A DNA stretch of 64,000 nucleotides, from NCBI GenBank assembly GCA_032124015.1, contig JAQBEH010000022.1, forward strand, positions 10,585-74,584, written 5' to 3'. Positions 4,174 to 58,595 of the stretch are shown one piece after another. Within the stretch, counting starts at the first letter, position 1. Each line of letters starts with the position of its first letter. The translations under genes were made by a program, and so were the position numbers. Under the pieces are notes generated by a model. The model searched no databases. It was not told where the DNA came from and saw nothing but the letters and a program-made list of their open reading frames with translations. This DNA is from Acidobacteriota bacterium. Its GTDB lineage: Bacteria; Acidobacteriota; Polarisedimenticolia; Polarisedimenticolales; DASRJG01.

Positions 4174-4256
4174 GGGAAGAGGGGACACTCCCCTTTTTCT
4201 CACAAAGCTCCCCGGACACAGCTTCGATGAGAAAAAGGGGAGTGTCCCCTTTTCCC
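4174..4256. repeat. REPIN-like doublet: two inverted REP copies separated by a 25-nt spacer
   Basis: 4174..4202 (GGGAAGAGGGGACACTCCCCTTTTTCTCA) pairs with 4228..4256 at 28 of 29 positions, with one G-T. Each arm contains the 13-mer core (4181..4193 and 4237..4249). Confidence 0.8.
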
Positions 4257-6182
4257 ACCGAGTATTCTCCGTACGTGATTCCGCTGTCCCGCATTCCGCA
4301 TCGCATCGCCGTGCCGGCGCTCCTGGCGCTGTTCGTCACTTGCGGATTCGTCTCGCTGTCGAGGGATTCCATAACGTTCGACGAGACGGCTCACCTGGGC
4401 GCAGGCGTTTCGTATTTCGAAACTGGCGATTTCCGCCTCAACCCCGAGCACCCGCCGCTCGCCAAGTTAATCGCGGCCGCGCCCCTCGCGGTGTTGCACC
4501 GGGGTGGAGGGAATTACGACTCGCCCCTGTGGACCGGATCCCGTGCCAGCGCTGGCGAACCGCGTCGTTCGCACGCAAGCGAGTGGGGATTCGGTTTCGA
4601 ACTCCTGAACGGTCACCGCGCGGATGCATCGCGTCGTGATCCCGCGGCGCGACTGTCGCCGGCTCGTTGCATGATCCTGATCCTGGGGGTTCTGCTCGCG
4701 ATGGTCGTGTACGCCTGGGCCCGCGAGCTCTACGGGCCGCCCGCCGGACTTCTCGCCCTCGCACTCGCGATCACCTGCCCGGCGCTCTTAGCCCACGCGC
4801 GCCTCGTGACGACCGACCTTCCGGCCGCCCTCGGTTTCACGGCAACGACCTGGCTTGCGTGGAGATGGCTTTCGGCGCCGTCGTGGCGGCGCGCGGCGCT
4901 CACCGGCATGGGCCTGGGCGGGGCCGTCTTGTTCAAGTTCTCGTGCGCGCTCCTCGCCCCGCTCGTCGTGGTGCTCGCCGCGATCGCCGTTGCGACCGGA
5001 CGGTTGGACTTGAAGCGCGCGGGCGCGGGGCTCGCACTGATCGCAGCCATTGGCTACGGGTCGATCTGGGCCGGGTACGGGTTTCGTTTCGAGGCCTCGC
5101 GGGATCCGGGTTACGTTCTCGAGTGGGAGGGTCTCGCCGAAGACGCACCGCTCGCTCCCACGATCGTCTTCGCGCGCGAGCACCGTCTCCTCCCCGAGGC
5201 CTACCTCTTCGGCCTCGCCTACGCGAAAACCGAGTCCGTTGGACGCATCGCGTTTCTCGATGGAGAGCAGTCGCTCGCCGGCTGGTACCGCTATTTCCCC
5301 GAGGCGTTCTTTTTGAAAACACCCTTGGCGTTCACCGCGCTCGCGCTGTGGGTCCTCGCGGCCAGTGCGCTCCGCACTCGCGGTAGGAGCTTCGACGGAT
5401 GGTGCGTCGCGCTGACACCGCTCGTGTTCGCCGCGGTCGCGATCCTGAACCGCTTCAACATCGGCCACCGCCACGTGGCATCCGTCTACCCGTTCCTGTG
5501 CGTGGCGATCGCACCCGCGGCGGCGTGGCTTTCGGAGCGCGGTGCGCGGGCCGTCGCCGTCGCCGTCCTCGTCGGATCGTGCTTCGTCTCGTTCGCCCTC
5601 GCGACGCCCCGTTACCTCTCGTACTTCAACGTCTTCGCGGGCGGGCCGCGCGGCGGCGCCCAACACTTGGTGGACTCCAACATCGACTGGGGGCAGGATC
5701 TCATCCGCCTGAAGAGTTGGATGTCGGCCCGGAGCATCGAGGAAGTCGATCTCGCCTACTTCGGCACCGCCGATCCGCGCGCGTACGACATCAAGTTCCG
5801 GAAGGTCTTGCTGCTCTTTGATTTCTACCCGGAACTACCGGTCGTGCGGCCGGAGGCCGGTCACTACCTCGCCGCGAGCGTCACGCTGCTCGCGGGGGTC
5901 GACCCGAATGCTGATCGCTTGTTTGCGAAGGAACTCCTCAAGCGCGGGGTCGTTCCGCGAGACCAGATCGCGGCATACCAAAGCGACAGCGAGTTGCGCC
6001 GCGCCCGGGGGCTTCCTCTCGTGCACATCGCGGACTGGATGGTCCAGCGCGGACTGATCACCGCCGACGAGCGGCGCATGGCGGACGATGTGATCCCCGC
6101 GACGTGGCTCAGAAACGCGCGCGAGACGCTTACGCCTGTCGGCTGGGCCGGCGATTCGATCGCGATCTACCGGATGCCCTGA
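4227..6182 (+). CDS. GT-C fold glycosyltransferase, ArnT/PMT (GT39)-like membrane protein
   Basis: ITFDETAHLGAG..NPEHPPLAKL first-loop motif followed by many TM helices. The start is ambiguous: ATG 4227 lies inside the REPIN, and GTG 4275 is an alternative. The ORF-track start 4059 overlaps the upstream gene and is rejected. Confidence 0.7.
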   Translation: MRKRGVSPFPTEYSPYVIPLSRIPHRIAVPALLALFVTCGFVSLSRDSITFDETAHLGAGVSYFETGDFRLNPEHPPLAKLIAAAPLAVLHRGGGNYDSPLWTGSRASAGEPRRSHASEWGFGFELLNGHRADASRRDPAARLSPARCMILILGVLLAMVVYAWARELYGPPAGLLALALAITCPALLAHARLVTTDLPAALGFTATTWLAWRWLSAPSWRRAALTGMGLGGAVLFKFSCALLAPLVVVLAAIAVATGRLDLKRAGAGLALIAAIGYGSIWAGYGFRFEASRDPGYVLEWEGLAEDAPLAPTIVFAREHRLLPEAYLFGLAYAKTESVGRIAFLDGEQSLAGWYRYFPEAFFLKTPLAFTALALWVLAASALRTRGRSFDGWCVALTPLVFAAVAILNRFNIGHRHVASVYPFLCVAIAPAAAWLSERGARAVAVAVLVGSCFVSFALATPRYLSYFNVFAGGPRGGAQHLVDSNIDWGQDLIRLKSWMSARSIEEVDLAYFGTADPRAYDIKFRKVLLLFDFYPELPVVRPEAGHYLAASVTLLAGVDPNADRLFAKELLKRGVVPRDQIAAYQSDSELRRARGLPLVHIADWMVQRGLITADERRMADDVIPATWLRNARETLTPVGWAGDSIAIYRMP

Positions 6183-6817
6183 TCCTGCGCGGCCGCGACA
6201 AAGGCCCGGATCTTCGCGTAGTCCTTGAAGCCGTCGGCGCCCCTCGTCCCGGAGTTGACGTCGACCGCGGAGGGGCGCACCTGGGCGATGGCTTCCGCGA
6301 CGTTGTCGGGCGTGAGGCCACCCGCCAGGATCACCGGCTTTGGGGACGCCGCGGCGATGCGAGCGCTGATCGACCAGTCGTGCGTCGTCCCCGTGCCGCC
6401 GATGCGCCCGCGAGTTTTTGTATCGAGCAAGACGGCATCCGCGACGCGGGCGGCCGCCAGCGCCGCCGCGATCGTGTCCTCGCCCGTGACGTGGACGCTC
6501 TTGACGATGGCCGCGTAGGGGAGCGCCTCTCGTAGCGCGGAGATCGCAACCAGGGGGAAGTCTCCGTGGAGCTGCGCCACCGTCGCCCCGGACTCGCGCA
6601 TCAGCGCTGTTACCTCGGCAAGGCCGGTGCGATGCGTCACCAGGACGCGGCTGACGAAGGGTGGGACGGCTTCGAAAATGCGTCGCGCGGCCGCGGGATC
6701 GATCCTGTCGGGGGTGGCGTAGTCGAGCCCGACCAGGCACCCCACGGCGTCCGCCCCGGCCAGGACCGCGGCCAGAGCGTCTTCCACCCGTCTCAACCCG
6801 CAGATCTTCACGCGCAT
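6167..6817 (-). CDS. trpF: Phosphoribosylanthranilate isomerase
   Basis: MRVKICGL.., ..LLDTKT..GGTG.. and PVILAGGL are typical TrpF motifs. ATG 6817 is preferred over the upstream TTG 6826. Confidence 0.85.
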   Translation of the reverse strand: MRVKICGLRRVEDALAAVLAGADAVGCLVGLDYATPDRIDPAAARRIFEAVPPFVSRVLVTHRTGLAEVTALMRESGATVAQLHGDFPLVAISALREALPYAAIVKSVHVTGEDTIAAALAAARVADAVLLDTKTRGRIGGTGTTHDWSISARIAAASPKPVILAGGLTPDNVAEAIAQVRPSAVDVNSGTRGADGFKDYAKIRAFVAAAQDQGIR

Positions 6818-6826
6818 AGGCCCCAA

Positions 6827-6880
6827 GGATAGGGGACCTGGGGGATAGGGGACACTCCCCTTTTCGGATGTCCTCTATCC
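6827..6880. repeat. REP copy embedded in a nested hairpin
   Basis: Outer inverted repeat GGATAGGGGAC (6827..6837) / GTCCTCTATCC (6870..6880) matches at 10 of 11 positions. It encloses ATAGGGGACACTCCCCTTTT (6845..6864). Confidence 0.75.
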
Positions 6881-6887
6881 TTGCGCC

Positions 6888-7070
6888 ATGGACGAAGACC
6901 TCATCCAGGCGCAGTGCCCCTATTGCGGCTCCTGGCAGGAACTGGTCCTCGACCCGGGGTCCGTCGGGCAGATGGTCCAGGACTGCGAGGTTTGTTGCAA
7001 ACCGTGGGAAATGACCGTCGTCCGGAGCCGGTCCGGCGCCGTCACGGTGCGCCTCCTACGAATGGACTAA
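6888..7070 (+). CDS. CPXCG-motif cysteine-rich small protein (zinc-ribbon like)
   Basis: 60-aa ORF with CPYCG near the N-terminus and CEVCC downstream, matching the CPXCG small-protein family pattern. Confidence 0.6.
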   Translation: MDEDLIQAQCPYCGSWQELVLDPGSVGQMVQDCEVCCKPWEMTVVRSRSGAVTVRLLRMD

Positions 7071-7264: not shown

Positions 7265-9726
<2,462 letters not shown>

Positions 9727-9730
<4 letters not shown>

Positions 9731-9750
9731 GGGACAGTCCCCTTTTTCTT
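9727..9750. repeat. REP copy, one-mismatch core (GGGGACAGTCCCC)
   Basis: The sequence is ATAGGGGACAGTCCCCTTTTTCTT. The hppA stop TAG (9728..9730) is part of the element. Confidence 0.7.
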
Positions 9751-9778
9751 ACAAAATCAGAGAAGCGATTAAATCGAG

Positions 9779-9810
9779 ACGGCCGCTCCGAAGGGGGCGG
9801 CCGTTTTCTT
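9779..9810 (+). terminator. Rho-independent terminator candidate downstream of hppA
   Basis: Stem ACGGCCGC (9779..9786) / GCGGCCGT (9797..9804), followed by TTTCTT. Confidence 0.6.
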
Positions 9811-10577: not shown

Positions 10578-11014
10578 GTACCGCCCGATCGGCGCGTGAG
10601 GCTATCCGGTGGATCAACGCGGGCATCGGAGCCGGACTGCTGACGTGCGTCGCCTATCCGCTGGTGTCGATGGCTCCCCTTCCCCGGACCTTGCTCGTGG
10701 TTCTCGCGGCGACTCTGGGGCCTTCATTGGCGTTGGCGTCTCTGGGTCTTCGCGAAGTACTGCGGCTGCACGATGAATCGATGTTGTGCGATCTCGGGGC
10801 GCTGTTCAACATCCTCGCGGGGGTGTTGTTCGAGGCGATGTTGCTCGTTCAACTCGCGGTTCGTCTGCGTTCGCCGGGCGACGCGATACCCGAGCAGCTC
10901 GTAGGTGTGTGTCCGGCAGTCGGAGTTTGGTACCTGGCCGCGACGATTCTCACGTGGCGCTCGATGTCGTGGCTGAAGGAAACGGCGAGACAACGGTATG
11001 CCCGGCACACGTAG
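10574..11014 (+). CDS. Hypothetical integral membrane protein
   Basis: 146-aa ORF with about 4 hydrophobic segments. No family was recognised. Confidence 0.5.
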   Translation: MSTARSAREAIRWINAGIGAGLLTCVAYPLVSMAPLPRTLLVVLAATLGPSLALASLGLREVLRLHDESMLCDLGALFNILAGVLFEAMLLVQLAVRLRSPGDAIPEQLVGVCPAVGVWYLAATILTWRSMSWLKETARQRYARHT

Positions 11015-12328: not shown

Positions 12329-13416
12329 TGAAACCCATCGAGATCAACGACTTCCTCCAGGCCGATGTGATCGGGCAGCAGGAAACCCTAAAATTCGTGG
12401 CGGTCGCCATCTTCAAGCACATCCAGGGGGAGCGGTATGGCAACCTCTTGATGATCGGGAACTCCGGCACCGGCAAGACGACGATCATGCGTTCCATGGA
12501 ACGCTTGTACGAAAAGCACGAGGAGTTCCACGCGAATCGCGTCGTCTGCATCATGAACGCCAATCAGTTCGCGAGCGAAGAGGGAATCGTCGACCCGAAT
12601 CGCCTCCTCGTTCGTCTGGAAGAGCGGGCGCGAGAGATCCTCGGCGAGGATGCCACCGCCGAGCAGATCGGCGACTACATAGAGCGCGCGACCGTCTGCA
12701 TCGACGAGATCGACAAGATCTCGGCGATCGTCGGCGGCAAACCGTACGTCACCGGCATCAACATCCAGCAGGGGCTGCTGACGTTGATCGAGGGCGAGCG
12801 GATTCTCTACCCGGTGACGATCTACAAGAACAAGCAGCTCGAAAAAGCCGCGATCCACATCGATACTGGAAAGATGCTGTTCCTGTGCGCGGGAGCGTTC
12901 GAATCACTCTACGATCAGGTGTACCGGCGGGTGACGTCGCCGACGTCGCGCGTCAAGCTTCCCGCCGAGACCGTTTACGAAAACGGCGAAGTCCAGATCC
13001 GCGAGTACTTCACGCTGCGCCACTGGTTCAAACAAGAAGACCTGTTCGACTACGGCATGCAGCCACAGTTCCTCTCGCGCTTCGACAATTCGATCATTCT
13101 CGAAGACCTGAATGCCGGAACGTTGTCGCGCATTTTCACCGAGCCGAAGGATTCGGTCCTGCGCGCGTCCCAGAATTTTTTCAAGAACTACAATATCGAC
13201 ATCGACGTGACCGACGGCGCCGTGCGCAAGATCGCGGACGAGGCGTCGAAGTCGAGCCGTATCGGGGCGCGTGCGCTGAAGGCCGTCTGGGGAAAGATCA
13301 TCAAGCCGTACGAATTCGACCCGTTCGGACAGACGGACGTCAAAAAAGAAGGCGACCGCCACCGCCTGGTCGTCGACGAAGCGGTCGTGCTACGTGCGCT
13401 GAAGCCGCCGCTTTAG
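12328..13416 (+). CDS. ClpX-like AAA+ ATPase lacking zinc-binding domain and IGF loop
   Basis: Walker A GNSGTGKT, Walker B VCIDEIDK, ClpX-like blocks QQGLLTLIEG, MLFLCAGAF and IGARALK. No N-terminal Cys cluster is present. Spot-counted lines are 48-57% GC against about 67% in the neighbouring gene. Confidence 0.8.
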   Translation: MKPIEINDFLQADVIGQQETLKFVAVAIFKHIQGERYGNLLMIGNSGTGKTTIMRSMERLYEKHEEFHANRVVCIMNANQFASEEGIVDPNRLLVRLEERAREILGEDATAEQIGDYIERATVCIDEIDKISAIVGGKPYVTGINIQQGLLTLIEGERILYPVTIYKNKQLEKAAIHIDTGKMLFLCAGAFESLYDQVYRRVTSPTSRVKLPAETVYENGEVQIREYFTLRHWFKQEDLFDYGMQPQFLSRFDNSIILEDLNAGTLSRIFTEPKDSVLRASQNFFKNYNIDIDVTDGAVRKIADEASKSSRIGARALKAVWGKIIKPYEFDPFGQTDVKKEGDRHRLVVDEAVVLRALKPPL

Positions 13417-13445: not shown

Positions 13446-13452
13446 TGTCGCC

Positions 13453-16685: not shown

Positions 16686-17312
16686 ATGAGCGCCGTCCTG
16701 ACGAAGCTCACCGCCCGCTACACGGTCGATCGGTTCGTCACCGCGAACGGTCCCGACCCGTTCCGCATCCTCATCAGTTGCATCCTCTCGCTCCGCACGA
16801 AAGACGAGGTCACCTACCCGGCAACCGAACGCCTGTTCGCAAAAGCGAGCGATCCGGCGGGGATGCTGAAGCTGACGCCCACCGCGATCGAAAAGGCGAT
16901 CTACCCGGCCGGCTTCTACCGGACGAAGGCGAAGCAGATTCGCGCGATCTCCGGGATCTTGCTGTCGCGTCATGACGGGACAGTGCCCGACACGATCGAG
17001 GACCTGCTCCTCCTTCCCGGCGTCGGGCGCAAGACGGCCAACCTCACGGTCACCCTCGGCTTCGGAAAACCCGGCATCTGTGTCGACACGCACGTCCACC
17101 GCATCGCGAACCGCCTCGGCTGGGTCGCGACCAACACCCCCGACGACACCGAGGCCGCGTTGCGACGCAGCCTCCCGAAACGTTGGTGGATCCCGATCAA
17201 CGAGACGTTGGTGCGCCACGGACAGCAGGTGTGCAAGCCGATCTCACCGTTGTGCTCGGCCTGTCCGGTCGCCCACGCGTGCCCGAAGATCGGTGTCGCG
17301 CGCCGTCGCTGA
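16686..17312 (+). CDS. nth: Endonuclease III
   Basis: HhH-GPD motif [14 protein letters not shown], catalytic VDTHV, and a C-terminal Fe-S cluster motif [20 protein letters not shown] 16671, overlapping the AKR stop, is an alternative start. Confidence 0.88.
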
Positions 17313-19358
17313 GGCGCGAAAAAGGGGAGTGTCCCCTTTTCCCCAAACCTGCAGCATCCACGCCACATCGAAGGCGATCTCCTTCAGCGCGTCGTAGCGC
17401 CCCGAGGAACCGCCGTGGCCGGCGGCGAAGTTCACCTTCAACAGGACCTGCGGCGCGCCGTCGTTTCTTTCACGCAAGCGCGCGACGTACTTGGCGGGCT
17501 CCCAGTACATGACTTGGCTGTCGTTGATGGAGGTCTTCACGAGCATTTTCGGGAATGGCTTACGGCCGAGGTTCGAGTACGGGCAATATGAGCGCAGGAT
17601 CGCGAACTGCGCCGGATCGGTCGGATTGCCCCACTCCTCGAACTCGGCGACGGTCAGCGGCAACGATGTATCGAGCATCGTGTTGATGACGTCGACGAAC
17701 GGCACCTTGAGGACCGCGCCACCCGCGACGTCCGGCCGCAGGTTCATAACGGCCCCGATGAGAAGGCCGCCCGCGCTCCCCCCTTCGATGATCAAGCGCT
17801 CCCGCGAAGCGTACGATCCGCGCACGAGGAAGTCAGCCACGGCGATGAAGTCGGTGAACGAGTTCGGCTTGTGCTCCATCCGCCCCGAATCGTGCCAGGG
17901 CTTTCCGAGCTCGCCTCCGCCACGCACGTGCGCCAGGGCGCAGACGGCGCCGCGATCGAGGAGCGACAGCCGGTTCGACGAGAACATCGCGGGGAGCGGA
18001 TAGCCGTACGCGCCGTAACCCACGAGGTGCATCGGCGCCGTGCCGTCCATCGGCGTGTCCTTCCGGTGAGCGAGCGAGACCGGAACGGCCGTTCCGTCGG
18101 GCGCGATCGCTTGAGCGCGCTCCACGGTGTAGAGCGAGGGGTCGTAGCCGCCCAGCACCTCGTTACGCTTCATGAGCGTCTTGGCGCGCGTCGCCATGTC
18201 GTAGTCGTAGATGGACGGTGGCGTGACCATCGACTGGTAACGGAAGCGGAAGATCGACGTCTTGAACTCGGCGTTGATGTCCGGGAAGGTCGAGTACGCC
18301 GGTTCCGGGAAAGAGATCGCGTGGGTTTCGCCCGAGTCCAGCGCGTGCACCACGAAGCGCTCGAGCCCATCCTCGCGCTCGTAGGCGACGAGATGCTCCG
18401 CGAACAACTCGATCCCCGCCAGGTTCACGTCTGTGCGGTGCGGCAGGACCTCCGTCCACGCTTCCTTGGCGATGGCGTCGACGGGGCACCGTGCGAGGCG
18501 GTAGTTGCGTCCGCTATCGTTGGTGCGAATCCAGAAGGTGCTTCCGCCGTGGTCGACCTCGTATTCGAGTTCGGGTGCTCTGGGCAGGAAGATCCGGAAT
18601 GCGCCGTCGGGATCGCTCGCTGCGAGGAAGCGGACCTCGCTGGCCGTGTGGCTGTCGGCGTCCAGGAAGAGGTACCCGAGACTCCGCGAGCGGCGGATCG
18701 CAAGCGAGAATCGCTCATCCGACTCCTCGTGAATGAGGACAGGTTCCGCGTCGCCTCGCCGGTGACGCCAAAGTCGATACGCTCGTTTCGCGTCGTCGTC
18801 GGTAACGTAAAAGAGCGTTTTCCCGTCGGCCGACCATGCGACCGAGCTGACCCTTTCGATCGATTCCGGCCCGTTTTCGGCGCGCCGCAGGTCGCGGACG
18901 TGCAGCGTGTACTCGCGAAACCCGGTCGTGTCCACCGAGTAGGCCAGTAAGCTGCCGTCGTCGCTCACCACGAAGGCGTTCACGGCGAAATAGGCGTGGT
19001 CGCGAGCGAGAGCGTTCAAGTCGAGGACGATTTCTTCGGCCGAGGTGAGCGCGCCGAGCTTGCGCGCGAGGATCGGGTACTGCTTCCCTTCCTCGGTGCG
19101 CGCGTAGTACCAATACAATCCCTTGCGGTAGGGGACCGAGAGGTCGGTCTCTTTGATGCGCGCGAGCATTTCCTTGTACAGGCGCTCTTGAAGGGCGCCG
19201 GTTCCCTGAAGCGCCGCTTCCGCGTGGGCGTTCTCGGCGACGAGGTGCGCCGTGACCCGAGGATCGTCTTTGTCGCGAAGCCAGAAGTAGTCGTCCTCCA
19301 GGGTCTCGCCATGAAGCGTGATCGCATGGGGAATACGCGGAGCGATGGGCGGGTTCAT
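17244..19358 (-). CDS. ptrB: Oligopeptidase B (S9A prolyl oligopeptidase family) with a REP-encoded C-terminal extension
   Basis: N-terminus [19 protein letters not shown], catalytic region GGSAGGLL, and AAGHGG near the end. ATG 19358 is used, because the ORF-track start 19415 runs through a REP. No stop occurs until 17244. Confidence 0.85.
17318..17344. repeat. REP copy (exact core, GTG orientation)
   Basis: The sequence is GAAAAAGGGGAGTGTCCCCTTTTCCCC. It lies just 3' of nth and inside the ptrB reading frame. Confidence 0.8.
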
Positions 19359-19367
19359 CCGACAATA

Positions 19368-19404
19368 ATAGGGGACACAGGGAAAGGGGACACTCCCCTT
19401 TTTC
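19368..19404. repeat. REP copy with ATAGGGGACAC head (left flank of RAYT)
   Basis: The sequence is ATAGGGGACACAGGGAAAGGGGACACTCCCCTTTTTC. It is near-identical to the reverse complement of 20226..20261. Confidence 0.8.
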
Positions 19405-19411: not shown

Positions 19412-20078
19412 TCAAAAGTGGAAATCTGGTTCGCGGTCAGGGAAGGGCGCGTCCCGCTTCGCCACCCGTGGTCGACCGCGTGGTCTCAGTGTACCCAGCA
19501 GGTTGAGGCGGGTAGCGACGTCCCGCGTCCAGGTCGAGTCGCCCAGGGGCCGGTCGCGTTGAATCGACGTGCGTAGCTCCGAAAGTTCGGCGCCTGTCAG
19601 TGGGGTGTCGACCCAATCGAGCCACGGCGACGGAAGCGGCACCGGCGAGTTTGCCAGCAGTCCACGCGATTGGTCTATGAACTTCCGCTCGCGAACGCTC
19701 GACCATCGCCAGTGGGTAGCACAACGCACAAGGCCGGCCCGCACCGGATTGCGCTCGACATAACGCACGACCGTCAAGAAATGAGCATCAGCCTGGACGG
19801 GAGACGCCCCGTAACGCCCCTGCCAGACGCGGCCCGTTGTCCCGTGACGAACACGATGCCGTTGCACGTGCGTCGTGATGAGCCAGTGCATGAAGCGAGC
19901 GAGGTCCCCGTCCCCGATCGGGCGCACGACCAGATGGACGTGGTTAGGCATGAGACACCAGGCGAGAACATCCAGGCGCACTCTGCTCTTGGCATCGTGC
20001 ATCAGTCGCCCGGGCGTTGCGGCGAGTCACGACATGAGCGCACAAGCCACCGGGTATCGGACGGGAAAACCGAGGCAT
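19412..20078 (-). pseudogene. REP-associated tyrosine transposase (RAYT, IS200/IS605 Y1 family), N-terminally disrupted
   Basis: The main ORF 19412..20002 carries the HUH motif (LMPNHVHLVV) and the Tyr helix (VVRYVERNP). An N-terminal strand remnant MPRFSRPIPGGLCAHVVTRRNARATD starts at 20078 in a different frame. The segment between the two is shorter than in intact family members. Confidence 0.6.
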
Positions 20079-20178: not shown

Positions 20179-20211
20179 GCAACCCACCGCACGCGTCGTG
20201 CGGTGGGTTGC
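20179..20211. repeat. 33-nt palindrome (15-bp stem, 3-nt loop) upstream of the RAYT remnant
   Basis: GCAACCCACCGCACG (20179..20193) and CGTGCGGTGGGTTGC (20197..20211) are exact reverse complements. Confidence 0.7.
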
Positions 20212-20225: not shown

Positions 20226-20261
20226 GGAAAAGGGGAGTGTCCCCTTTTTGATGTCCCCTAT
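20226..20261. repeat. REP copy with inverted head (right flank of RAYT)
   Basis: The sequence is GGAAAAGGGGAGTGTCCCCTTTTTGATGTCCCCTAT. The M16 peptidase stop (TAG on the minus strand, 20258..20260) lies in its head. Confidence 0.8.
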
Positions 20262-22984
20262 TTCGGGTTGCCGTCGGGGTCGAGGTACTTCACGTCGCCC
20301 CATTTGAGTTCCTTGATGCCGGCCTCGATCTTCGCGCGGTCGCCCACGACGACCCAGACCATCTTGTCGGGGGTCAGCGTCTTTTTGGCGTCGGCATCGA
20401 CGTCGCTGGTCTTGAGCGCTCGGACCTTGCCGGGAAACGTCGTGTAGTAGTCGTCGGGAAGGCCGAAGATCACGATGTCGGCGATCGAGCCTGACACTGC
20501 ACCCTGAGTCTCCCACTGCCCAGGCAACGTGCGGGTCATGCCGTCTTGCGCCATCGCGAGCTCGGGCTGCGTGACGGGCATCGGGCCCGTGATGCCCTTG
20601 AACTGCTTCATGACCTCGACCATCGACTCCATGGTCTTGTCGGTTTGAACCGGTGCGTAGCCGATGAACGGGCGCTGGGCGCGCGCATCGGGAACGAACG
20701 TGTACACGCCGTAGGACCAGTGCTTGTCTTCCCGCAGGTCCATGTTCAGGCGGGCAACGAACGATCCGCCCAACACCTGAGTCATGGTCTTGAACGCGAT
20801 CTCGTCGGGGTTCGCGATCGGCGGAACGAGCTGGCCGGCGAGGATCACCGATTGCGCGGCACCCGGCTTGTCGAGAATGTAGATCGTCGTCGCGTTCTTC
20901 CCGGCGACGTTCGCCAGCTTCTTCGCCGGCACGCTTCCCTTCTTCCAGTCTTTGAACAGCGCCTCGAGTTTGGGCTTGATCTCGGCGAGCGTGGTGTTGC
21001 CGACGACGATCATCGTCGCGTTGTCGGGTTTGAACCACGTCTGGTGGTACTTGACGAGATCGTCTCGCGTCATCTTTGCCACGCCGTCCTCGTACCCTGA
21101 CCCTGAGAACGGAAGCCCGTACGGATGGCTGGAGCCGTAAAGAAGTTTCGGGAAGACGCGCAGCGCCATCCCGACCGGCTGGGCCTTCTCGCGCTGGATT
21201 CTCGCGATCTGCTGCTTTTGCAGGCGCTCGAAATCCGCCTCGGGGAAGGACGGATGCAACACGATGTCGGCGAAAAGGTCGAGTGAGGCGTCGAGGTTGG
21301 CGTTCAACGCGGAGAGAGAGACGAACGAGCTGTCGAGCGACGACCCCGCCCCGACGTTGGCTCCGAGCCGCTGCTGCTCATCGGAGATTTGGAGCGACGA
21401 GCGGGTCTTCGTCCCCTCGTCGAGCATTGCCATCGTAAGGCTAGCGGTGCCTGGAATGCCGTTCTGGTCGGCGGCGTAGCCAGCGTCCAAGATCAGGTTG
21501 AACCGGACGACCGGGACCGAGTCGCGCCGGGCGAACTGGATCTTCATGCCGTTCGAGAGTGTGGCCTTTTCGACTTTCGGGAAAACGACGGGAGGCTCCG
21601 CGCCCCCTTCCGGCATCTTCTTGCGGTCGGCGCCGGCGCCGTCAGCTTTGAGGTCGGCCGGGTACGGGTCGATCTGGAGGATATAGACGCCGTCGCTGAG
21701 CCACTTCTTAGCGGCCTCCTTGACTTCGGTCTGGGTTGCTTTGCGCACGATATCGAGGTCGTTCTTGTAAGCGTCGGGCGTTCCCGCGTAGACCATGCCG
21801 GCAGCCAGCACGTCCGACGTGCCACCGAATCCGCCGATGCGCTCTACGCCTCGAATGAACCCGGAGAAGACGTCGGTTTTCGCCCGCTCGAGCTCATCGG
21901 GGGTCGGTCCCTTGGCTAGGAACTTGGCAAGCTCCTCGTCCATCGTCTTTTCGACCTGGGCCGGATCGCCGTCTTTCTTGACGTCGACCTCGAGGGTGAA
22001 CAAGCTGGCGATCTCGCGCGTGTCGTTGTAGGCGTTGACTCTGGTCGCGGTCTGGTCGTCGTAAACCAGGCGCTTGTAAAGACGCGAGCTCTTGCCGTTC
22101 GACAGCACCTGCGCCGCGAGATCGAGCAACACGCGGTCTTTCGTCGCGTCGCCTGGAACGTTCCAGTACTTCAGGATGCGCGTTTGCGGGACACGGTCCT
22201 GGGCCAACTGGCGCGAGGATCCCGTTCGCTTGGCGACCCATTGATCGAAGCGGGCGATCGGGGGGCCTGGCGGGATGTCGCCGAAGTAGGTCTTCACCTT
22301 CGCGAGAATCTCCTGCGTATTGACGTCTCCGGCGATCGACAACACCGCGTTGTTCGGTCCGTAGTACGTCGCGAACCACTCCTTGACGTCTTCGAGCTTG
22401 GCGGCGCCCAGGTCTTCCATCGAGCCGATGACCGTCCAGTTGTAAGGGTGGCCGACGGGGAAACAGGCCTTGTTCGACAGCTCATCGGAAAGCGAGTACG
22501 GCTCGTTGTCGCCCTGGCGCTTTTCGTTTTGGACGACCCCGCGCTGCTCGTCGAGCCGCGGTTGGTCGATCGCGCCGGTCAAGTGCCCCATCCGGTCGGA
22601 CTCGAGCCAGAGGATCGTGTCGAGCGCGGTCTTCGGCACGTTCTGGAAGTAGTTCGTTCGGTCGTTGTTGGTCGTACCGTTCAGGTCGGTGGCTCCCAAC
22701 GGCTCGACCGCCATGAAGTAGTCGTTGTTGAAGTTCTCGCTCCCGTTGAACATCAGATGCTCGAACAGGTGAGCGAATCCTGTGCGGCCGGGCTTCTCGT
22801 TTTTCGACCCCACGTGGTACCAGACATTGACCGCCACGATCGGGGCCTTGTGGTCCTCGTGGACGATCAGCGTGAGGCCGTTGTCGAGGGTGAACTTCTG
22901 GTAGGAGATGTCGGGGATAGGAAGTTCGGCGGCGAGCGCCGGAAGCGCCGCAGCGAGTGCGAGAGCGATCAGACCTTTCTTCAT
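20258..22984 (-). CDS. M16 (pitrilysin) family zinc peptidase, two-unit fused form, secreted
   Basis: ATG 22984 follows AAGGAGA. Signal peptide MKKGLIALALAAALPALA and zinc motif HLFEHLMF are present. The product is 908 aa. The ORF-track start 23362 is an upstream extension. Confidence 0.88.
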   Translation of the reverse strand: MKKGLIALALAAALPALAAELPIPDISYQKFTLDNGLTLIVHEDHKAPIVAVNVWYHVGSKNEKPGRTGFAHLFEHLMFNGSENFNNDYFMAVEPLGATDLNGTTNNDRTNYFQNVPKTALDTILWLESDRMGHLTGAIDQPRLDEQRGVVQNEKRQGDNEPYSLSDELSNKACFPVGHPYNWTVIGSMEDLGAAKLEDVKEWFATYYGPNNAVLSIAGDVNTQEILAKVKTYFGDIPPGPPIARFDQWVAKRTGSSRQLAQDRVPQTRILKYWNVPGDATKDRVLLDLAAQVLSNGKSSRLYKRLVYDDQTATRVNAYNDTREIASLFTLEVDVKKDGDPAQVEKTMDEELAKFLAKGPTPDELERAKTDVFSGFIRGVERIGGFGGTSDVLAAGMVYAGTPDAYKNDLDIVRKATQTEVKEAAKKWLSDGVYILQIDPYPADLKADGAGADRKKMPEGGAEPPVVFPKVEKATLSNGMKIQFARRDSVPVVRFNLILDAGYAADQNGIPGTASLTMAMLDEGTKTRSSLQISDEQQRLGANVGAGSSLDSSFVSLSALNANLDASLDLFADIVLHPSFPEADFERLQKQQIARIQREKAQPVGMALRVFPKLLYGSSHPYGLPFSGSGYEDGVAKMTRDDLVKYHQTWFKPDNATMIVVGNTTLAEIKPKLEALFKDWKKGSVPAKKLANVAGKNATTIYILDKPGAAQSVILAGQLVPPIANPDEIAFKTMTQVLGGSFVARLNMDLREDKHWSYGVYTFVPDARAQRPFIGYAPVQTDKTMESMVEVMKQFKGITGPMPVTQPELAMAQDGMTRTLPGQWETQGAVSGSIADIVIFGLPDDYYTTFPGKVRALKTSDVDADAKKTLTPDKMVWVVVGDRAKIEAGIKELKWGDVKYLDPDGNPK

Positions 22985-23433: not shown

Positions 23434-25533
23434 ATGCGCCGATGGATACCCGCAATCATGACGCTCGCTGTGCTGGGGATTTCCGTCCTACGGGCGGCCG
23501 ACACCGAAACCCCGGTTGCTCATCCGGACGCCGAAGAGCGCGTCGAGGTCACGGCCACCAAGTTCGAGGACGACCCTGACAAGATCCCGCAGTCGATGAC
23601 CGTCGTTTCGGGCCAGGATCTCAGGGATCGTGGGGCGATGGATTTCCGCTCGGCCCTGGCGCTCGTGGCCGGAGTCGACATCGCCCCGGGCGGAGACGGC
23701 GGGCCGGCCTCGGCGGTCCCCGAAATGTGGGGCTTCAGGGAGCAGGACGCGTACCTGTTGATCGTCGACGGCGTCCCTTGGGGCGGCGTGTTCAACCCGC
23801 AGGTGTCGACCGTGCGCCTGAACGATATCGAGAGGATCGAGATCCTGCGCGGGGCGGCGCCGGTCATGTACGGGACCACCTCGTTCGTCGGAGTGATCCA
23901 GGTGATCCGCTACCGCCCCGGGTCCGGCGCGCCCGGCATCCAGGCGGCCGCGGGCTCGTACGGTAGTGCGGCGCTCGCGTCGTCGTTCGACCTCGGAACG
24001 TGGGCCGGCTTCGGCTCCCGTCTCACGCTCGACGCCGAGCAGCGGGATTACCCCGACCCGCGCACCGACTTCGAGCGCGGGCATGTTCTCTGGCGCAACT
24101 TCCGCCCGCTCGGTGGCGGTGGTGAAGTCTATTTCAACCTCGAAGGCACGTGGCTCAACCAGTCCCCGTCGAGCCCGGTCCCACGCACGGGAACCGTCCT
24201 CGCGCCGAACGTCCCGCAGAACGCCAATTACAACCCCGGCGGTGCCGAAATCGATCCCCGCCGGAACACGGTGAACGGCGGCTTCACCATCCCGAAGTCC
24301 TACGGCATCTGGAGCGGGCTCGTGTCCTACGCGCGTTCGTCCACCGACGCCCTGCGCGGATTCATCACCGATCCGACCGGGCCGGTCTTCCCCGCAATCG
24401 GCGAGCGTTCGACTACAACCCTCGACGAGGTGTAGGCCGACGCCCACATCGAGCTCACGAACGTCGCGAAGACTCAAATTGTGGTCGGTGTGGATTCCCA
24501 GTACGGCAAAGGCGACCTAGACGGTGGCGATTTCGACTACACGATCAACGCCGACGGCTCGGACCCGCCCGACGGCAACTCGATTCCGCTGAACATCGAC
24601 GCGAATATCATCGACACTCGAAATTTCGGAGGGCTGTACGGATTCGTCGCCTGGACGCCCGACTGGAGGTGGCGGCTCGAGGGGGGGCTGCGCCTCAATC
24701 TCACCGACGAGAGCCGCGACACCACGGTCCAGGACTTCGTGCCGGCGACGTTAGACCAGGGAACCGACCACGCCAGCGAGTCGAGGCCGAGCGGAAGCGC
24801 GGGTGTGACGTTCACCGCGTGGCAACGCGGGGCCGACAATGTCCGGATCTTCGCCGACTACCGGAAGACGTACAAGCCCGCCGCCGTGGATTTCGGCCTG
24901 AACGCCGAAGCCAGAATCCTAGACCCCGAGACCTCGGAGAGCATCGAGCTGGGCGTGCGCACGACGCTCCTCGAGCAGAGACTAGAGCTTGAGATGTCGG
25001 TCTTCAACATGGAGCTCCAAAATCTCGTGGTCCCCACGACCGTGAATGGCCTGCCCGCGCTCGAAAACGCCGGCGCCGAGCAGTTCAAGGGGATCGAGCT
25101 CGAAGCGACCGGGCGCCTGCCGCACGACATCGTGGTGCGGGCGGCGGGGAGCTACCACGACGCAACGTTCCTCGATTACGTTCGGGACTTCGACGGCGTG
25201 CCGACCCAGCTCGAAGGGAAACGCCAAGAGATGACCCCGATCTGGCTGGCCGGGGCCGGCATCGTCTACGCGCCTGCCAAGGGGTTCATCGCCCACGCGG
25301 AGGCGTCGTTCACCGGCTCGCGCTATCTCAACAAACGGAACACGGCGCTCGCCGCCCAGTTCACGACGTGGGGGATGGGCGTCGGCTGGCGCGGGGACCG
25401 CTTCACGATCCGGCTCGACGGCACGAATCTCGGCGACGAGCGCCCTCCGGTTTCCGAGAGCGAGCTCGCCGATGCGTCCTACTACCTTCTCGAGGCCCGC
25501 CGGATCTGGCTGTCGTTCGACTGGTTGTTCTGA
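23434..25533 (+). pseudogene. TonB-dependent receptor interrupted by one in-frame TAG (24433..24435)
   Basis: Signal peptide and plug domain (IPQSMTVVSGQDL, IERIEILRGAAPVMYG) are in ORF 23434..24435. The barrel, ending ..SFDWLF, is in ORF 24481..25533. Both ORFs are in the same frame, and the intervening codons are open apart from the TAG. Confidence 0.8.
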
Positions 25534-25562
25534 AAAAGTGGAACTCCCCTACTTCTCTAGAA
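25533..25562. repeat. Degenerate REP-like element between convergent TBDR and OMP genes
   Basis: The sequence is AAAAAGTGGAACTCCCCTACTTCTCTAGAA. Its reverse complement contains GTAGGGGAGTTCC. Confidence 0.4.
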
Positions 25563-46484: not shown

Positions 46485-46934
46485 ATGAGCGGCTCCCAGA
46501 TCTTCTCCAAGCTGAGCCAGCAGGCCTTGGAAGACCATGCCGTCATCCACTTCCACCTCGACCAGCTCGAGCGCGCGCTTTCCGACCTCGATCCCGTACG
46601 CGCCACGGACGAGACGCTCCTCACGGTCGCCGTGCGCATCGACAGCTTCAAGGAGCGCCTCACCGAGCACTTCGGCACGGAGGAGGATGGGGGGCTGTTT
46701 CAGGGGATTCAGGACGCCCTGCCCCAGGCCGAAAGCGACGTTCGCCGCCTCCGCGCTCAGCACGCCCGGTTGAATGAGGCGCTCGAAAAGGCGCGCGCGA
46801 TCGCCCGCCGGGGTGACCCCGCCGAGGCGCTGGCCCTCAAAGCGGACCTGGACCGCTTCCTCGCGATGATGCGCGAGCACGAGCGCGACGAAGAAGCGCT
46901 CTTGAAGCGGGCCTTGCGGCAAGACGAGTGCTGA
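46485..46934 (+). CDS. Hemerythrin-like (HHE cation-binding) domain protein
   Basis: 149-aa helical protein with recurrent His/Glu pairs (LEDHAVIHFH, LTEHFGTEE, MREHERDEE). Confidence 0.5.
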   Translation: MSGSQIFSKLSQQALEDHAVIHFHLDQLERALSDLDPVRATDETLLTVAVRIDSFKERLTEHFGTEEDGGLFQGIQDALPQAESDVRRLRAQHARLNEALEKARAIARRGDPAEALALKADLDRFLAMMREHERDEEALLKRALRQDEC

Positions 46935-48273: not shown

Positions 48274-48279
48274 CGTTCG

Positions 48280-55226: not shown

Positions 55227-56156
55227 TTGTTCCAGGTTCAAAGTCTGGTCAAATGCTACGGATCCCTGCGCGCCGTCGATGGCGTGTCGTTCACGGTTGC
55301 GAAGGGGGAGCTTTATGGGCTCCTCGGCCCCAACGGCGCGGGCAAGACAACCATCATGTCGATGCTCTCGGGACTTCTGACCCCCGATGACGGTCGGATC
55401 CTCTTCGATGGGATCGACCTCGCCGGCGAGCCGCTGAAGGTGAAGGCCCAGCTCGGCGTCGTGCCGCAGGAGCCGGCGCTCTATGAAAACCTCTCGGCGC
55501 GCGAGAACCTCAGCTTCTGGGGCGGGCTCTATGGTCTGTCCGGCGCACCGCTGAAGCAGGCGGTCGATCGCGTGCTCGAGCTGGTCGGGCTCACCGACCG
55601 CGCGAAGGACCCGGTGAAGCAATACTCCGGCGGGATGAAACGCCGTATCAATCTGGCACTCGGGCTGGTGCACGGACCGCGCGCGGTGCTGATGGACGAG
55701 CCGACCGTTGGTATCGACCCGCAGGCGCGACTCAACATTCTCGAGGCGGTCAAGCAGGTCGCTGCGGCCGGTACCACGGTGATCTACACGACCCACTACC
55801 TCGAGGAGGTCGAGCAGCTCTGCGACCGGATCGCGATCATGGATCACGGCAAGATCCTCGCGGAGGGAACGCTCGATGAGCTGAAGCGCCGCGTGGGTGG
55901 CCGCGACGTCGTCACGGTGAACGGGTCGTTCGACGCCGCCACCGTGCTGCCCCGCTTGACCGCGCTTGAGGGCGTGCAGGTCACGTCGACCGAGCCCGGG
56001 CGGATCGTGCTCTCGGTTGAAGGCTCCGGGCGCGGCGCGGTCGACCTGCTCTCGCGCGTGCTTGCCGGCGGGCTATCGATCGATGGAATCTCGATCCAAC
56101 CGCCGAGTCTCAACACGCTCTTTTTGAACCTCACGGGCCGCGAGCTGCGCGACTGA
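55227..56156 (+). CDS. ABC transporter ATP-binding protein (ABC-2 type exporter)
   Basis: TTG 55227 has GAGG 7 nt upstream. Walker A GPNGAGKTT, signature YSGGMKRR and Walker B VLMDEPT are present. Confidence 0.85.
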   Translation: MFQVQSLVKCYGSLRAVDGVSFTVAKGELYGLLGPNGAGKTTIMSMLSGLLTPDDGRILFDGIDLAGEPLKVKAQLGVVPQEPALYENLSARENLSFWGGLYGLSGAPLKQAVDRVLELVGLTDRAKDPVKQYSGGMKRRINLALGLVHGPRAVLMDEPTVGIDPQARLNILEAVKQVAAAGTTVIYTTHYLEEVEQLCDRIAIMDHGKILAEGTLDELKRRVGGRDVVTVNGSFDAATVLPRLTALEGVQVTSTEPGRIVLSVEGSGRGAVDLLSRVLAGGLSIDGISIQPPSLNTLFLNLTGRELRD

Positions 56157-57433
56157 TGCGGCTCCTCGTTCACCTCGTCGTGAAAGACCTGAAGCGCAAG
56201 ATGCGCTCGCCGCTAGGTCTGATTGCCGTGCTGTGTTTCCCGCTGCTCTTCGCGGGGATGATCGCTCTGGCGTTCGGCCACGGGGACAGCATCCCCAAGG
56301 TCCGCATGCTCGTCGCCAACGAAGATGACGGCCTCCTCGCGAACGGGGTCGCCTCGGTGTTCACCTCGCAACAGGCGGCGAAGTACTTCGACGGCAAAAC
56401 CGTCACCGTCGCCCAGGGCCTGGCGCTCATGGAAAAGGGGAAGGCGTCGGCTCTCCTGACGATACCCAAGGGGTTCACGAAAGACGTCCTCGACGGAAAG
56501 CCCGTGACGTTGAGGCTCTTGAGGAACCCCGCAGAGGGGATCCTCCCCGAGATCGCGGAGCAGGCCGCCGGGGCGCTGACGGACATCCTGGACGGTGCGC
56601 GGCGGGTGTTCGACAAGCCGCTCGCCGACCTGAGGCCGTTCTTTGAGGACGACGGCAAGGCGCCGAGCGACGCAGACATCATCGCGATCTCGCTGGCGGT
56701 CAAGCGGGGGATCGAGGGGATGTCGGACCTCGTCTTCCCGCCGGCGATCATTCTCGAGAGCGAAATGCTCGGCAACGTGACGGCGAAGCCTCAACCGACG
56801 GAAAAGAGGAAAGGCGACGCCCCGTCGTCGATCTTCCTCCTCGTTCTTCCCGGGGTCGCGGTGTACGGGTTGTTCCTCGTGGCCGATCAGGGGATGCGCG
56901 ATGTGATGACCGAGCGCACGCTCGGCACGCTGCGGCGCCAACTCGCCGGGCCGATAGCACCGGAGACGATCATCCTCGGGAAGGCCGTTTACACCGCGGT
57001 GTTGGCAGGAATGGCCATCGTCGTGATCGGCGGAATCGGTGCTTCCCTCTTGACTACATCGGTCAGCATCCCCGCGTTTCTCCTCCTTTCCGGAGCGCTC
57101 GTCCTGGCCGTCACCGGGACGACGGCGGTGATCTACGGCGTCGCGCGTACCGAACGGCAGGCCTCGACTCTCGGGAACATGATCTTCCTCGCGATGGGGT
57201 TTCTTGGGGGCGGTTTCATCCGCGTCGAGGGACTCCCGTCGGCGGTGCGTGGTATCGCACCGTTCACGCCGCTGTACTGGGGGACGCAAGGCTACCGCGC
57301 GATGCTCGAGAATGGGGCCGGAGTTTCGGGGGTCGCGACGCACATAGGTGTTCTTGCCCTCATGGGGATTGTCTTTCTCGGAATCGGTGCGGTGGCGCTG
57401 AGGCGGACGGCCCGCCGGGGAGTTTCGGCGTGA
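56156..57433 (+). CDS. ABC-2 type transporter permease
   Basis: 425 aa with an N-terminal TM helix, a large external loop and a C-terminal bundle of 5 TM helices. It overlaps the ATPase stop. Confidence 0.8.
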   Translation: MRLLVHLVVKDLKRKMRSPLGLIAVLCFPLLFAGMIALAFGHGDSIPKVRMLVANEDDGLLANGVASVFTSQQAAKYFDGKTVTVAQGLALMEKGKASALLTIPKGFTKDVLDGKPVTLRLLRNPAEGILPEIAEQAAGALTDILDGARRVFDKPLADLRPFFEDDGKAPSDADIIAISLAVKRGIEGMSDLVFPPAIILESEMLGNVTAKPQPTEKRKGDAPSSIFLLVLPGVAVYGLFLVADQGMRDVMTERTLGTLRRQLAGPIAPETIILGKAVYTAVLAGMAIVVIGGIGASLLTTSVSIPAFLLLSGALVLAVTGTTAVIYGVARTERQASTLGNMIFLAMGFLGGGFIRVEGLPSAVRGIAPFTPLYWGTQGYRAMLENGAGVSGVATHIGVLALMGIVFLGIGAVALRRTARRGVSA

Positions 57434-58575
57434 GGTCGCTTCTGCTTCTCGCCGCGAACGACGTGCGCCTGACGGTTCGTGATCGCGCCGCAGCATTCTG
57501 GATTCTGCTGCTGCCCATCTTCCTGATCTGGCTGTTTGGAAGCATAGGGGGCGGGAGCGGAACGCCGAAAGTCGCGCTGACGATCGTCGATCGGGACGGC
57601 GGATGGCTGGCCCAGTCGTTCTCCGGGGAGCTCGAATCGCCCAACGTGGCTCTGACGATTCTCCGCGGTGCGGAGGTCGATGGCGAGGCCGCGAAAAAGG
57701 CGACGCGCTGGATCGAGCTTCCCGCGGGATTCACCGACAACGTCCTCGCCGGGACGCAGCAGGTGTTGAAGATCGAAACCGGCGAGAACGCCCAGGCCGA
57801 CTATTCGCGCGCCGCGGAGGTTGTCGTCATCCGCGCCATCACGCGAACGCTCGCCCGTGTCGCCGAGATGAAGCAGTCGAGCGGTCCCATGAGTGCCGAC
57901 ACCTACGACGCGCTGCGCGCGCGCCCGCCGATCGTCACGCTGACCACGTCCACTGCGGGGCACGGAACGGCGGTGCCCCAAGGCGTCGCCCAGAGCGTGC
58001 CGGGGATCATGACGTTCACGGTTCTCATGATGACGCTGATCTACGGCGCGGTGTTCCTGACGATCGAGAAGCGCGAGGGCATGTTGAAGCGCCAGCTGAC
58101 GCTTCCGATCTCGCGCCCGACGATCCTCCTGGGTAAGGTGCTCGGCCGCGTTTTCGTCGCGATGCTCCAGATCGTGATTCTCGTCCTCGCCGGCCGGTTC
58201 CTCTTTCAGCTCGATTTCGGGCATTCGACCGCGGCATTGTTTGCGCTCCTCATCAGCTATGCCTTCGCGGTCGCCGGGATCGCGACGTTTCTGGGTGCGA
58301 TTCTCGCCAGTCCCGAGCAGGCGTCGATCGTCGGGTGGCTGGCCAGCATGGTCATGGCCGCGATGGGCGGTTGCTGGTGGCCTTCAGAGGTCATGCCCGA
58401 ATGGCTCCGCACGGCGGCGCATGTCTTTCCGACGACCTGGGCGATGGACGCGTTCCATGCGCTCATCAGCTTCGGACGGGGCTTCGAGGCCGTCGTCGTT
58501 CCCTGCGCCGTGCTGATCGGTTTCGGCACCCTGTTCTCCTGGATCGGCGCGCGCAAGCTCCAGACGAGTGTTTAG
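57430..58575 (+). CDS. ABC-2 type transporter permease (paralogue)
   Basis: 381 aa with the same architecture as the preceding permease. GTGA start-stop overlap. Its TAG stop lies in a REP copy. Confidence 0.8.
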   Translation: MRSLLLLAANDVRLTVRDRAAAFWILLLPIFLIWLFGSIGGGSGTPKVALTIVDRDGGWLAQSFSGELESPNVALTILRGAEVDGEAAKKATRWIELPAGFTDNVLAGTQQVLKIETGENAQADYSRAAEVVVIRAITRTLARVAEMKQSSGPMSADTYDALRARPPIVTLTTSTAGHGTAVPQGVAQSVPGIMTFTVLMMTLIYGAVFLTIEKREGMLKRQLTLPISRPTILLGKVLGRVFVAMLQIVILVLAGRFLFQLDFGHSTAALFALLISYAFAVAGIATFLGAILASPEQASIVGWLASMVMAAMGGCWWPSEVMPEWLRTAAHVFPTTWAMDAFHALISFGRGFEAVVVPCAVLIGFGTLFSWIGARKLQTSV

Positions 58576-58595
58576 GGGACACTCCCCTTGTTCAC
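58571..58595. repeat. REP copy (exact core) between convergent genes
   Basis: The sequence is TTTAGGGGACACTCCCCTTGTTCAC. It contains the TAG stop of the permease (58573..58575) and abuts the stop of the MoxR-like gene (58592..58594). Confidence 0.8.

Follow-up and report, generated by a model that had tools for sequence, protein, structure and literature searches.

A dispersed hairpin repeat family in an acidobacterial genome and its probable RAYT-type tyrosine transposase

The DNA analysed here (the window) is a stretch of 64,000 nucleotides from the genome of an uncultured member of the Acidobacteriota, positions 10585–74584 of contig C22 in an assembly of 3.97 Mb, 156 contigs and 65.8% G+C. 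A 13-nt sequence, GGGGACACTCCCC, recurs in the window, and an initial annotation took it for the core of a repeat family resembling repetitive extragenic palindromic (REP) elements and REPINs. Between two of its copies, at 19386 and 20232, lies a gene for a REP-associated tyrosine transposase (RAYT), a point absent from that annotation. The 13-mer is very likely the core of a REP-like terminal-repeat family of this transposase – a single-copy, vertically inherited HUH tyrosine transposase of RAYT/TIRYT type – and this assessment takes in the mechanism proposed below. The link between repeat and transposase is drawn because inverted copies flank the gene, this arrangement is kept in sister species, the abundant repeat type of a genome is the type beside its RAYT, and presence of the repeat at orthologous sites varies between species. 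The genome that contains the window is designated G000, and the other G numbers stand for the metagenome-assembled genomes (MAGs) of relatives with which it was compared.

Copies of the repeat in the window and in the genome

The 13-mer is present without mismatch at 4181, 6848, 19386 and 58575 on the plus strand and at 4237, 17324 and 20232 on the minus strand, which are the seven sites initially reported; the one-mismatch copy reported at 9730, GGGGACAGTCCCC, is also there. One hundred dinucleotide shuffles of the window gave a mean of 0.14 occurrences and a maximum of 1. The whole genome has 89 exact copies (47 on the plus and 42 on the minus strand) on 46 of the 156 contigs, compared with 0.59 expected from base composition, and GGGGACACTCCCC is its most frequent 13-mer, above every GC-rich low-complexity word. 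The initial annotation had named two findings that would count against a dispersed family, a chance-level count in the genome and copies limited to the window, and neither was found. The window is enriched, with 7 copies where the genome average gives 1.43 (Poisson P = 7e-4), five times its share. Copy numbers are underestimates, as repeats fall at many contig ends in the assembly.

The A-run and T-run noted beside the core are part of the consensus, GGAAAA-GGGGACACTCCCC-TTTTYC, and the solo unit is a perfect 25-nt hairpin, GGAAAA-GGGGA-CAC-TCCCC-TTTTYC, with an RNA minimum free energy of −16.9 kcal/mol. The extra head that had been described, AATAGGGGACA, was found in 23 copies genome-wide; some copies of the repeat carry an outer half-site pair, AATAGGGGACA ... 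TGTCCCCTATT, and only some have an ATAG head about 10 nt upstream of the core. Solo copies are more numerous than pairs, in which the inverted cores stand 54–56 nt apart around a conserved centre. Sister families in G000 begin with the same GGGGAC: GGGGACAGTCCCC (23 copies), GGGGACAGCAAC-N-GTTTTCC (19 half-sites) and GGGGACATTCTGC (9 copies).

The REP/REPIN reading of the initial annotation is supported by the genome-wide dispersal, the placement at gene 3' ends, the inverted doublets and the RAYT flanked by two inverted copies. It needs correction on two points: the repeat is of the GGGGWSAS type, without the GT[AG]G tetranucleotide at the palindrome foot, and the doublets contain a conserved centre rather than a neutral spacer.

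The RAYT gene

The RAYT gene lies at 19412–20077 on the minus strand. The repeat on its 3' side (19364–19404, plus strand) consists of a head, AATAATAGGGGACAC, and the core at 19386–19398, and the repeat on its 5' side (20226–20262, minus strand) of a head, ATAGGGGACA, and the core at 20232–20244. The TAG within the latter head is the stop codon of an M16 peptidase gene. The 16-mers of these repeats, GGGGACACTCCCCTTT on the 3' side and AAAGGGGAGTGTCCCC on the 5' side, have 74 genome occurrences each. Flanking 16-mers average 57 and 140 occurrences in RAYT groups 2 and 3, which are associated with REPINs, and 12 in group 1 (Bertels et al., 10.1101/119735), and by this criterion the RAYT of G000 is within the range of the REPIN-associated groups.

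The gene is single-copy in G000: Y1_Tnp (PF01797) matches once in the entire genome, at 19748–20008 of the window on the minus strand. It appears to be a pseudogene. The remaining open reading frame (ORF), 19412–20002, encodes 196 amino acids and retains the HUH motif (as HVH) and the Tyr of RYVERNPV, while an N-terminal coding piece from about 20077 to 19990 (minus strand), beginning MPRFSRPIPGGLCAHVVTRRNARAT, is immediately upstream in a different frame. Nucleotide alignment with four orthologues places a frameshifting 41-nt deletion near 19995–20000, which takes away about 45 N-terminal residues. Because of this deletion and the lost frame, renewal of the roughly 90 copies in G000 has probably ceased, except if the truncated protein still works or a second gene, missing from the assembly, is active.

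The ORF matches the NCBIfam family REP_Tyr_transpos (NF047646) with E = 4.8e-18, over profile positions 39–146 only, and an intact orthologue matches PF01797 with E = 1.8e-14. HVH (HMH in the orthologue) aligns with the HUH motif of E. coli TnpAREP (4ER8), the best PDB sequence match. In the same alignment, the counterpart of the Tyr of RYVERNPV is the first Tyr of DYIYINPV in 4ER8, taken to be the catalytic residue. An AlphaFold model of the intact G009 orthologue (238 amino acids), made from a 32-sequence alignment, has a predicted local distance difference test score (pLDDT) of 82.5. A fold search with this model returned 4ER8 first (E = 5e-10, target template modelling (TM) score 0.70), followed by the ISDra2, IS608 and IS200 transposases. 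About 95 residues at the C-terminus extend past the HUH/Y core; this extension is helical in the model, with three helices at 166–204, and Pfam found in it no helix-turn-helix (HTH) family, even at E = 10, and no DnaA_C. Public data hold more than 6,600 RAYT homologues, some of them named 'REP-associated tyrosine transposase' by JGI.

RAYT and repeat type in related genomes

Five RAYT orthologues (G002, G003, G006, G007 and G009) are all flanked by inverted cores. In G002, G003, G006 and G009 the neighbours are identical to those in G000 – an M16 peptidase ending in DPDGNP[KI] followed by the stop, and oligopeptidase B. The repeat type changes together with the RAYT flanks: the abundant core type of each genome, ACACT, ACAGT or ACATTCTGC, is the type beside its own RAYT. 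ACACT is both the flank type and the abundant type in G000 (89 copies), G002 (87), G003 (71) and G009 (75), and ACAGT in G006 (79) and G007 (142). The same holds for ACATTCTGC in G005 (32 copies), where the RAYT is at another locus in the genome, and in G036, a member of another genus (23 copies). G001, G004 and G008 have 0–1 copies of ACACT or ACAGT and no RAYT match. In terms of the GGGGWSAS motif, the RAYT flanks carry GGGGACAC on both sides in G000, G002, G003 and G009 and GGGGACAG in G006 and G007; the flank in G005 and G010 is GGGGACAT, which does not match the final S. In a search of 185,579 species genomes, the 21-mer AAAAGGGGACACTCCCCTTTT was repeated in only five MAGs, all of this genus, and single matches in other phyla were about as many as chance would give.

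This distribution bears on the possibility that the copies are a DNA-uptake or other recognition sequence selected for transformation, like the DNA uptake sequence (DUS) pairs in Neisseria terminators. A short fixed sequence, often in inverted pairs downstream of genes, is indeed placed as DUS and uptake signal sequences (USS) are. Uptake sequences number in the thousands per genome, however, and here there are only about 90 copies in 4 Mb, almost none of them inside genes; close relatives have other cores or none, and the type co-varies with the RAYT flanks. An uptake function is therefore extremely unlikely.

Occupancy of orthologous sites

Comparison of G000 with the sequences flanking 65 repeat sites in relatives gave 32 collinear pairs. 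Many orthologous sites have a copy in one species and lack it in another – at L026, for example, a 93-nt doublet in G009 corresponds to 8 nt in G000, and at L048 a singlet in G003 corresponds to none in G000.

Several of the copies in the window show such differences. The composite doublet at 4174–4256 (C22:14758–14840) is an 83-nt near-perfect palindrome that begins 9 nt past the stop of the gene at 2320–4164, with cores at 4181–4193 (plus strand) and 4237–4249 (minus strand) around the centre CCCCGGACACAGC at 4210–4222. This site has five states across six species. Neither G005 nor G008 has an element there, G006 has one core, G002 a core interrupted by a short inner hairpin, G001 a type-3 hairpin, and G000 the doublet with its centre module. 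The nested singlet at 6827–6880, with its core (6848–6860) inside outer arms GGATAGGGGAC and GTCCTCTATCC, occupies the whole gap between two divergent gene starts, and the orthologous gap of G002 is without the element. About 2.3 kb of extra DNA is found in G006 (C133:5202–7489) at exactly the divergent gap corresponding to window 6821–6887. The variant copy at 9728–9748 (plus strand, TAG-GGGACAGTCCCC-TTTTTC) shares the first G of its core, at 9730, with the stop TAG of the gene at 7265–9730; the site is occupied in G000, by an ACAGT-type copy, and in G003, by an ACACT-like one, and G005 and G006 have no copy there.

The singlet at 17318–17342 (minus strand, GAAAAA-GGGGAGTGTCCCC-TTTTCC) is inserted in the 3' end of the oligopeptidase B gene. 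Orthologues of this protein end in WGIEG followed by the stop. In G000 the last three codons and the stop have been replaced by the repeat, and the frame continues through it for 31 codons, adding a 31-residue tail (17244–17336, minus strand). Synteny with G002 and G003 stops at this copy; it is regarded as the marker of a rearrangement breakpoint because the glyoxalase-like gene downstream in those genomes is missing here.

Mobile elements of another kind, miniature inverted-repeat transposable elements (MITEs) of a DDE-type insertion sequence, would have the 13-mers as terminal inverted repeats, and the association with RAYT would be incidental. The inverted cores do enclose varied cargo, as those of MITEs might: a 43-nt centre, an interior of about 200 nt (G009, L014) and the 850-nt RAYT unit. 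The filled and empty sites speak against it, in that no direct target-site duplication was present at any pair examined. Moreover, solo copies exceed pairs, and the Y1 transposase gene, seen there in six species, was the sole gene located between inverted cores, no systematic search for DDE transposases having been made. An origin as MITEs is most unlikely.

Placement at gene ends

Gene positions were taken from a codon-usage gene caller (3,408 genes, 92% coding), the stops of which are reliable and the starts approximate. Among the 82 classifiable sites, 40 are between convergent genes, an arrangement found in 12% of all gaps, and 5 are between divergent genes, as are 26% of all gaps. The core lies a median of 11 nt after the stop codon, and within 16 nt of it in three quarters of cases. 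At 13 sites the stop TAG and the core share the core's first G, as has likewise been described for GTAG REPs (Di Nocera et al.). The singlet at 58573–58594 (plus strand) constitutes the entire 16-nt gap between two convergent stops, with a TAG overlapping the core at 58575 on one side and a TCA (TGA on the other strand) on the opposite side. The initial statement that all copies are intergenic or at gene ends thus holds for most, with two exceptions – the copy at 6848, between divergent gene starts, and the copy at 17324, inside the reading frame that it extended.

A hairpin with a T-run was found at 224 of 3,296 gene 3' ends, compared with 67 in the shuffled control, and the core or its variant is in 94 of these 224 terminator-like hairpins (42%). 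Once placed, the AAAA-hairpin-TTTT arrangement would, to judge from its sequence, probably act as a two-way intrinsic terminator or a 3' stabiliser, and such a role would account for its being kept where only minimal gaps separate convergent genes. The orientation of the core relative to the upstream gene is 10:9, without bias, and there is therefore no sign of strand-specific selection at the transcript level.

The same observations could be explained if the copies were ordinary intrinsic terminators of the host, immobile and unlinked to the transposase, whose common sequence is kept by selection, as it might be for a binding protein. The AAAA-GC hairpin-TTTT has terminator form on both strands, with the folding energy given above for the 25-mer; the core makes up a large part of the terminator-like hairpins; and copies lie within about 11 nt of stops. 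Immobile terminators would not be expected, however, at orthologous sites filled in one species and empty in the next, nor would their core type switch in step with the RAYT flanks. Sister genome G008 has no copies, and there are copies in the divergent promoter gap at 6848, in frame in kinase genes and inside a glgB-like gene of G002. Host terminators are a very unlikely explanation of the family.

The kinase copies are of the repeat 21-mer, which lies in frame (read as KGSVPF) directly before HRDLKPAN, within the kinase domain of two Ser/Thr kinase paralogues (C120:39621 and C67:24164). They cause no length change and are conserved in G003 and G009 (L064, L069); either the kinases have tolerated a conversion by the repeat, or these copies hint at where the repeat came from. 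The copy in G002 is a tight doublet inside a gene that reads like glgB. Several ACAGT matches inside genes (C133, C144, C36) were rejected as elements, being coding coincidences or protein repeats.

Proposed mechanism

From the biochemistry of E. coli TnpAREP and IS200/IS605 TnpA, the transposase would be expected to recognise the small hairpin GGGGA-CAC-TCCCC in single-stranded DNA and to cut and rejoin at it. Solo copies, inverted pairs and cargo-carrying pairs would spread to new sites, mostly just past stop codons, where the placed copies would probably act as two-way terminators or 3' stabilisers.

Several points weigh against the repeat being a REP-like family of this transposase that works in this way. 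The RAYT of the window is frameshifted, which makes current mobility in G000 doubtful. Both the window ORF (65.5 bits) and the intact orthologue (73.5 bits) are below the NF047646 cut-off of 80 bits; because of these scores, the RAYT is best classed on sequence as a divergent branch of the REP_Tyr_transpos family. Canonical REPs are defined by a GT[AG]G foot, which the repeats do not have. No RAYT was found in G001, G004 and G008, which are 75–87% complete, so that the absence is uncertain. The position figures are based on the calls of a crude codon-usage caller. An ordinary terminator is already present downstream of the repeat at 9730: the canonical intrinsic terminator GACGGCCGCTCCGAAGGGGGCGGCCGTTTTC at 9775–9805, about 45 nt beyond the copy, is conserved in G003, G005 and G006, whether or not the repeat precedes it. 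The copy at 6848 is in a divergent promoter gap, which is no place for a terminator.

The centre module and mirrored palindromes

The centre module of the doublets, TTTTTC-N4-CAAAGC-TCCCCGGATACC-GCTTTG-N4-GAAAAA, is present at about 50 genome sites, many of them at contig ends. Because these sites fall at contig ends, many assembly breaks are attributed to them, and the repeat family is a main cause of the breaks. Contigs that start or end inside a doublet include C3, C6, C16, C44, C45, C55, C65, C70, C122, C134, C144 and C151. One further palindrome at a contig end, C16:19–229 (211 nt, with 99-nt arms), was excluded from the evidence, as it is probably a contig-end fold-back artefact and not a genuine element.

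There are 41 near-perfect palindromes with the centre module in G000, of 40–157 nt, their arms measured by gapped extension. Within an element the outer arms are 93% complementary, compared with 63% identity between elements. Of 64 arm mismatches, 27 are G:T-compatible, which is no enrichment, and selection at the RNA level and at the DNA level therefore cannot be distinguished. The centre, TCCCCGGATACC, is asymmetric and is found in both orientations (28:13). Centre and core are decoupled in their distribution, with 33 centres in G004, where neither ACACT nor ACAGT cores nor a RAYT match were found, and none in G007 despite its 142 cores. Given these two genomes, the whole doublet does not co-occur with RAYT in the way that defines a REPIN. 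In G004 (L078–L097) the centre lies within three-layer palindromes of about 150 nt, GGGGACATTCTGC...GCAGAATGTCCCC, with GGGGACATTCTGC arms outermost, then a variable mirrored inner hairpin, then the centre.

Palindrome arms can also take in unique flanking DNA. In G002, a 130-nt palindrome has a right arm that repeats, in inverted form, the final 18 nt of the coding sequence upstream of it. This coding sequence is conserved in G000 (46912–46929), where the genes overlap (GTGCTGA) and there is no palindrome. The right arm of the G002 palindrome also provides a GGAG 7 nt before the ATG of the downstream gene. At L029 in G003, a 9-nt inverted copy of a gene end, including its stop, now terminates the convergent neighbour. 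In G000 the stop of a neighbouring gene is inside or at the edge of the palindrome in 14 of 35 centre-module elements and 20 of 70 singlets.

It is possible, if somewhat doubtful, that the palindromes have been remodelled and enlarged in place by hairpin-templated copying (a fold-back, 'rolling-hairpin'-like process) and not by insertion alone, and that the centre is an 'apex' element in its own right, persisting where there is neither the 13-mer nor a detected RAYT, as in G004. Such copying is suggested because the arms mirror each other within elements yet differ between them, because the centre occurs in both orientations, and because the arms include inverted copies of a neighbour's last codons and stop. 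The alternative is insertion into the loops of pre-existing hairpins, which fits the series of states at 4174–4256 and does not fit the 130-nt palindrome of G002. By capturing gene ends, the arms leave convergent genes with symmetrical stops and rewritten C-termini, and if copying in place is the case, the whole family would supply most of the two-way terminators of the lineage.

Comparison with known systems

Taken together, the repeat and the RAYT are a new lineage of an already known kind of element. The closest description is that of the TIRYTs ('TIRtrons'), RAYT-like transposases flanked by inverted repeats that share GGGGWSAS, some of which form moderately abundant families of single and dimeric repeats; they include a sharply defined acidobacterial group in Koribacter, Terriglobus, Acidobacterium and Granulicella (Di Nocera et al. 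2013, PMC3733652). TIRYTs have been classified as subclass 2.1, whose proteins are long and extended by an HTH-like region at the C-terminus and whose genes have no canonical REPs close by (Quentin et al. 2018, PMC6006769), and probably correspond also to group 1 of Bertels et al. The system in G000 resembles them in several ways: GGGGACAC fits GGGGWSAS exactly, there is no GTAG foot, the protein is long (238 amino acids when intact) with the helical C-terminal extension, and the inverted flanking repeats are also dispersed as singles and dimers, as has been reported in Stenotrophomonas maltophilia and with ORF1552 of the acidobacterium Koribacter versatilis. It differs from group 1 in its flanking 16-mers (74 occurrences compared with an average of 12), from subclass 2.1 in having no Pfam HTH in the C-terminal extension, and from TIRYTs in general in that the gene is single-copy and syntenic across species, as in the 'domesticated' groups 2 and 3. 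Placed by published descriptions rather than by reference sequences, the system would fit subclass 2.1 yet behaves like Bertels groups 2 and 3.

The REP/BIME/REPIN-RAYT systems of E. coli and Pseudomonas (Nunvar 2010; Bertels & Rainey 2011, PMC3116915; Ton-Hoang/Messing 2012, PDB 4ER8) share with it a single-copy HUH/Y1 transposase flanked by its presumed substrate repeat. As in REPtrons, the repeat is extragenic at gene 3' ends, occurs as singlets and as inverted doublets forming long hairpins, supplies some stop codons and is confined to one genus, with the RAYT vertically inherited and 4ER8 as the best structural match; the mirrored doublet arms (93% vs 63%) are a feature of REPINs. Unlike in REPtrons, each core is a perfect mini-hairpin with A and T runs, and the GT[AG]G foot is missing; the 'spacer' within a doublet, instead of being variable filler, is a conserved module distributed across the phylogeny in a pattern of its own; and the host belongs to the Acidobacteriota and not the Gammaproteobacteria. 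The TnpA proteins of IS200/IS605 elements (IS608, ISDra2) have the same HUH/Y1 fold (fold-search ranks 2–30), and dependence of their known members on single-stranded DNA hairpins is counted as shared; the gene here differs in being single-copy, in not moving as a unit and in lacking TnpB, and the repeats far outnumber it. The in-frame copies in the two kinase paralogues and in the glgB-like gene of G002 recall the Rickettsia palindromic elements, although such copies are a minority here and most are extragenic.

The system offers a clear example, outside the Proteobacteria, of a RAYT/TIRYT-type transposase together with its repeat population. Three co-diverged repeat types are found in one genus together with a freshly broken transposase in one member, which is a setting for asking how repeat populations decay after loss of the enzyme. 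The repeats also shape gene ends – they fill convergent gaps, donate stops, have replaced the C-terminus of oligopeptidase B and mark a break in synteny. For annotation, the copies account for several over-extended gene starts and ends in the window.

Other features of the window

A scan of the window with Rfam at gathering thresholds gave no match. Of the two degenerate relatives listed in the initial annotation, the one at 13414 is too degenerate to call. The other, at 25531–25553 (plus strand, TGA-AAAAGTGGAACTCCCCTA), lies in a 23-nt gap between convergent genes; with one mismatch and one deletion in the core at 25533, it is plausibly a decayed copy. The long palindrome at 1488–1576 (ATAAGGGGACAGCAACCGTTTTCC ... 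mirrored, with outer arms ATAGGGGGCAGAATAA), which had been described as related, belongs to the GGGGACAGCAAC-N-GTTTTCC family.

Between the 5' repeat and the start of the RAYT gene is a perfect hairpin of 33 nt (20179–20211, minus strand, GCAACCCACCGCACG-ACG-CGTGCGGTGGGTTGC) that has one copy in the genome. It is absent in G002 and is conserved with compensatory changes in G009, G003 and G006, and it may serve either as a regulatory site or to terminate the peptidase gene upstream.

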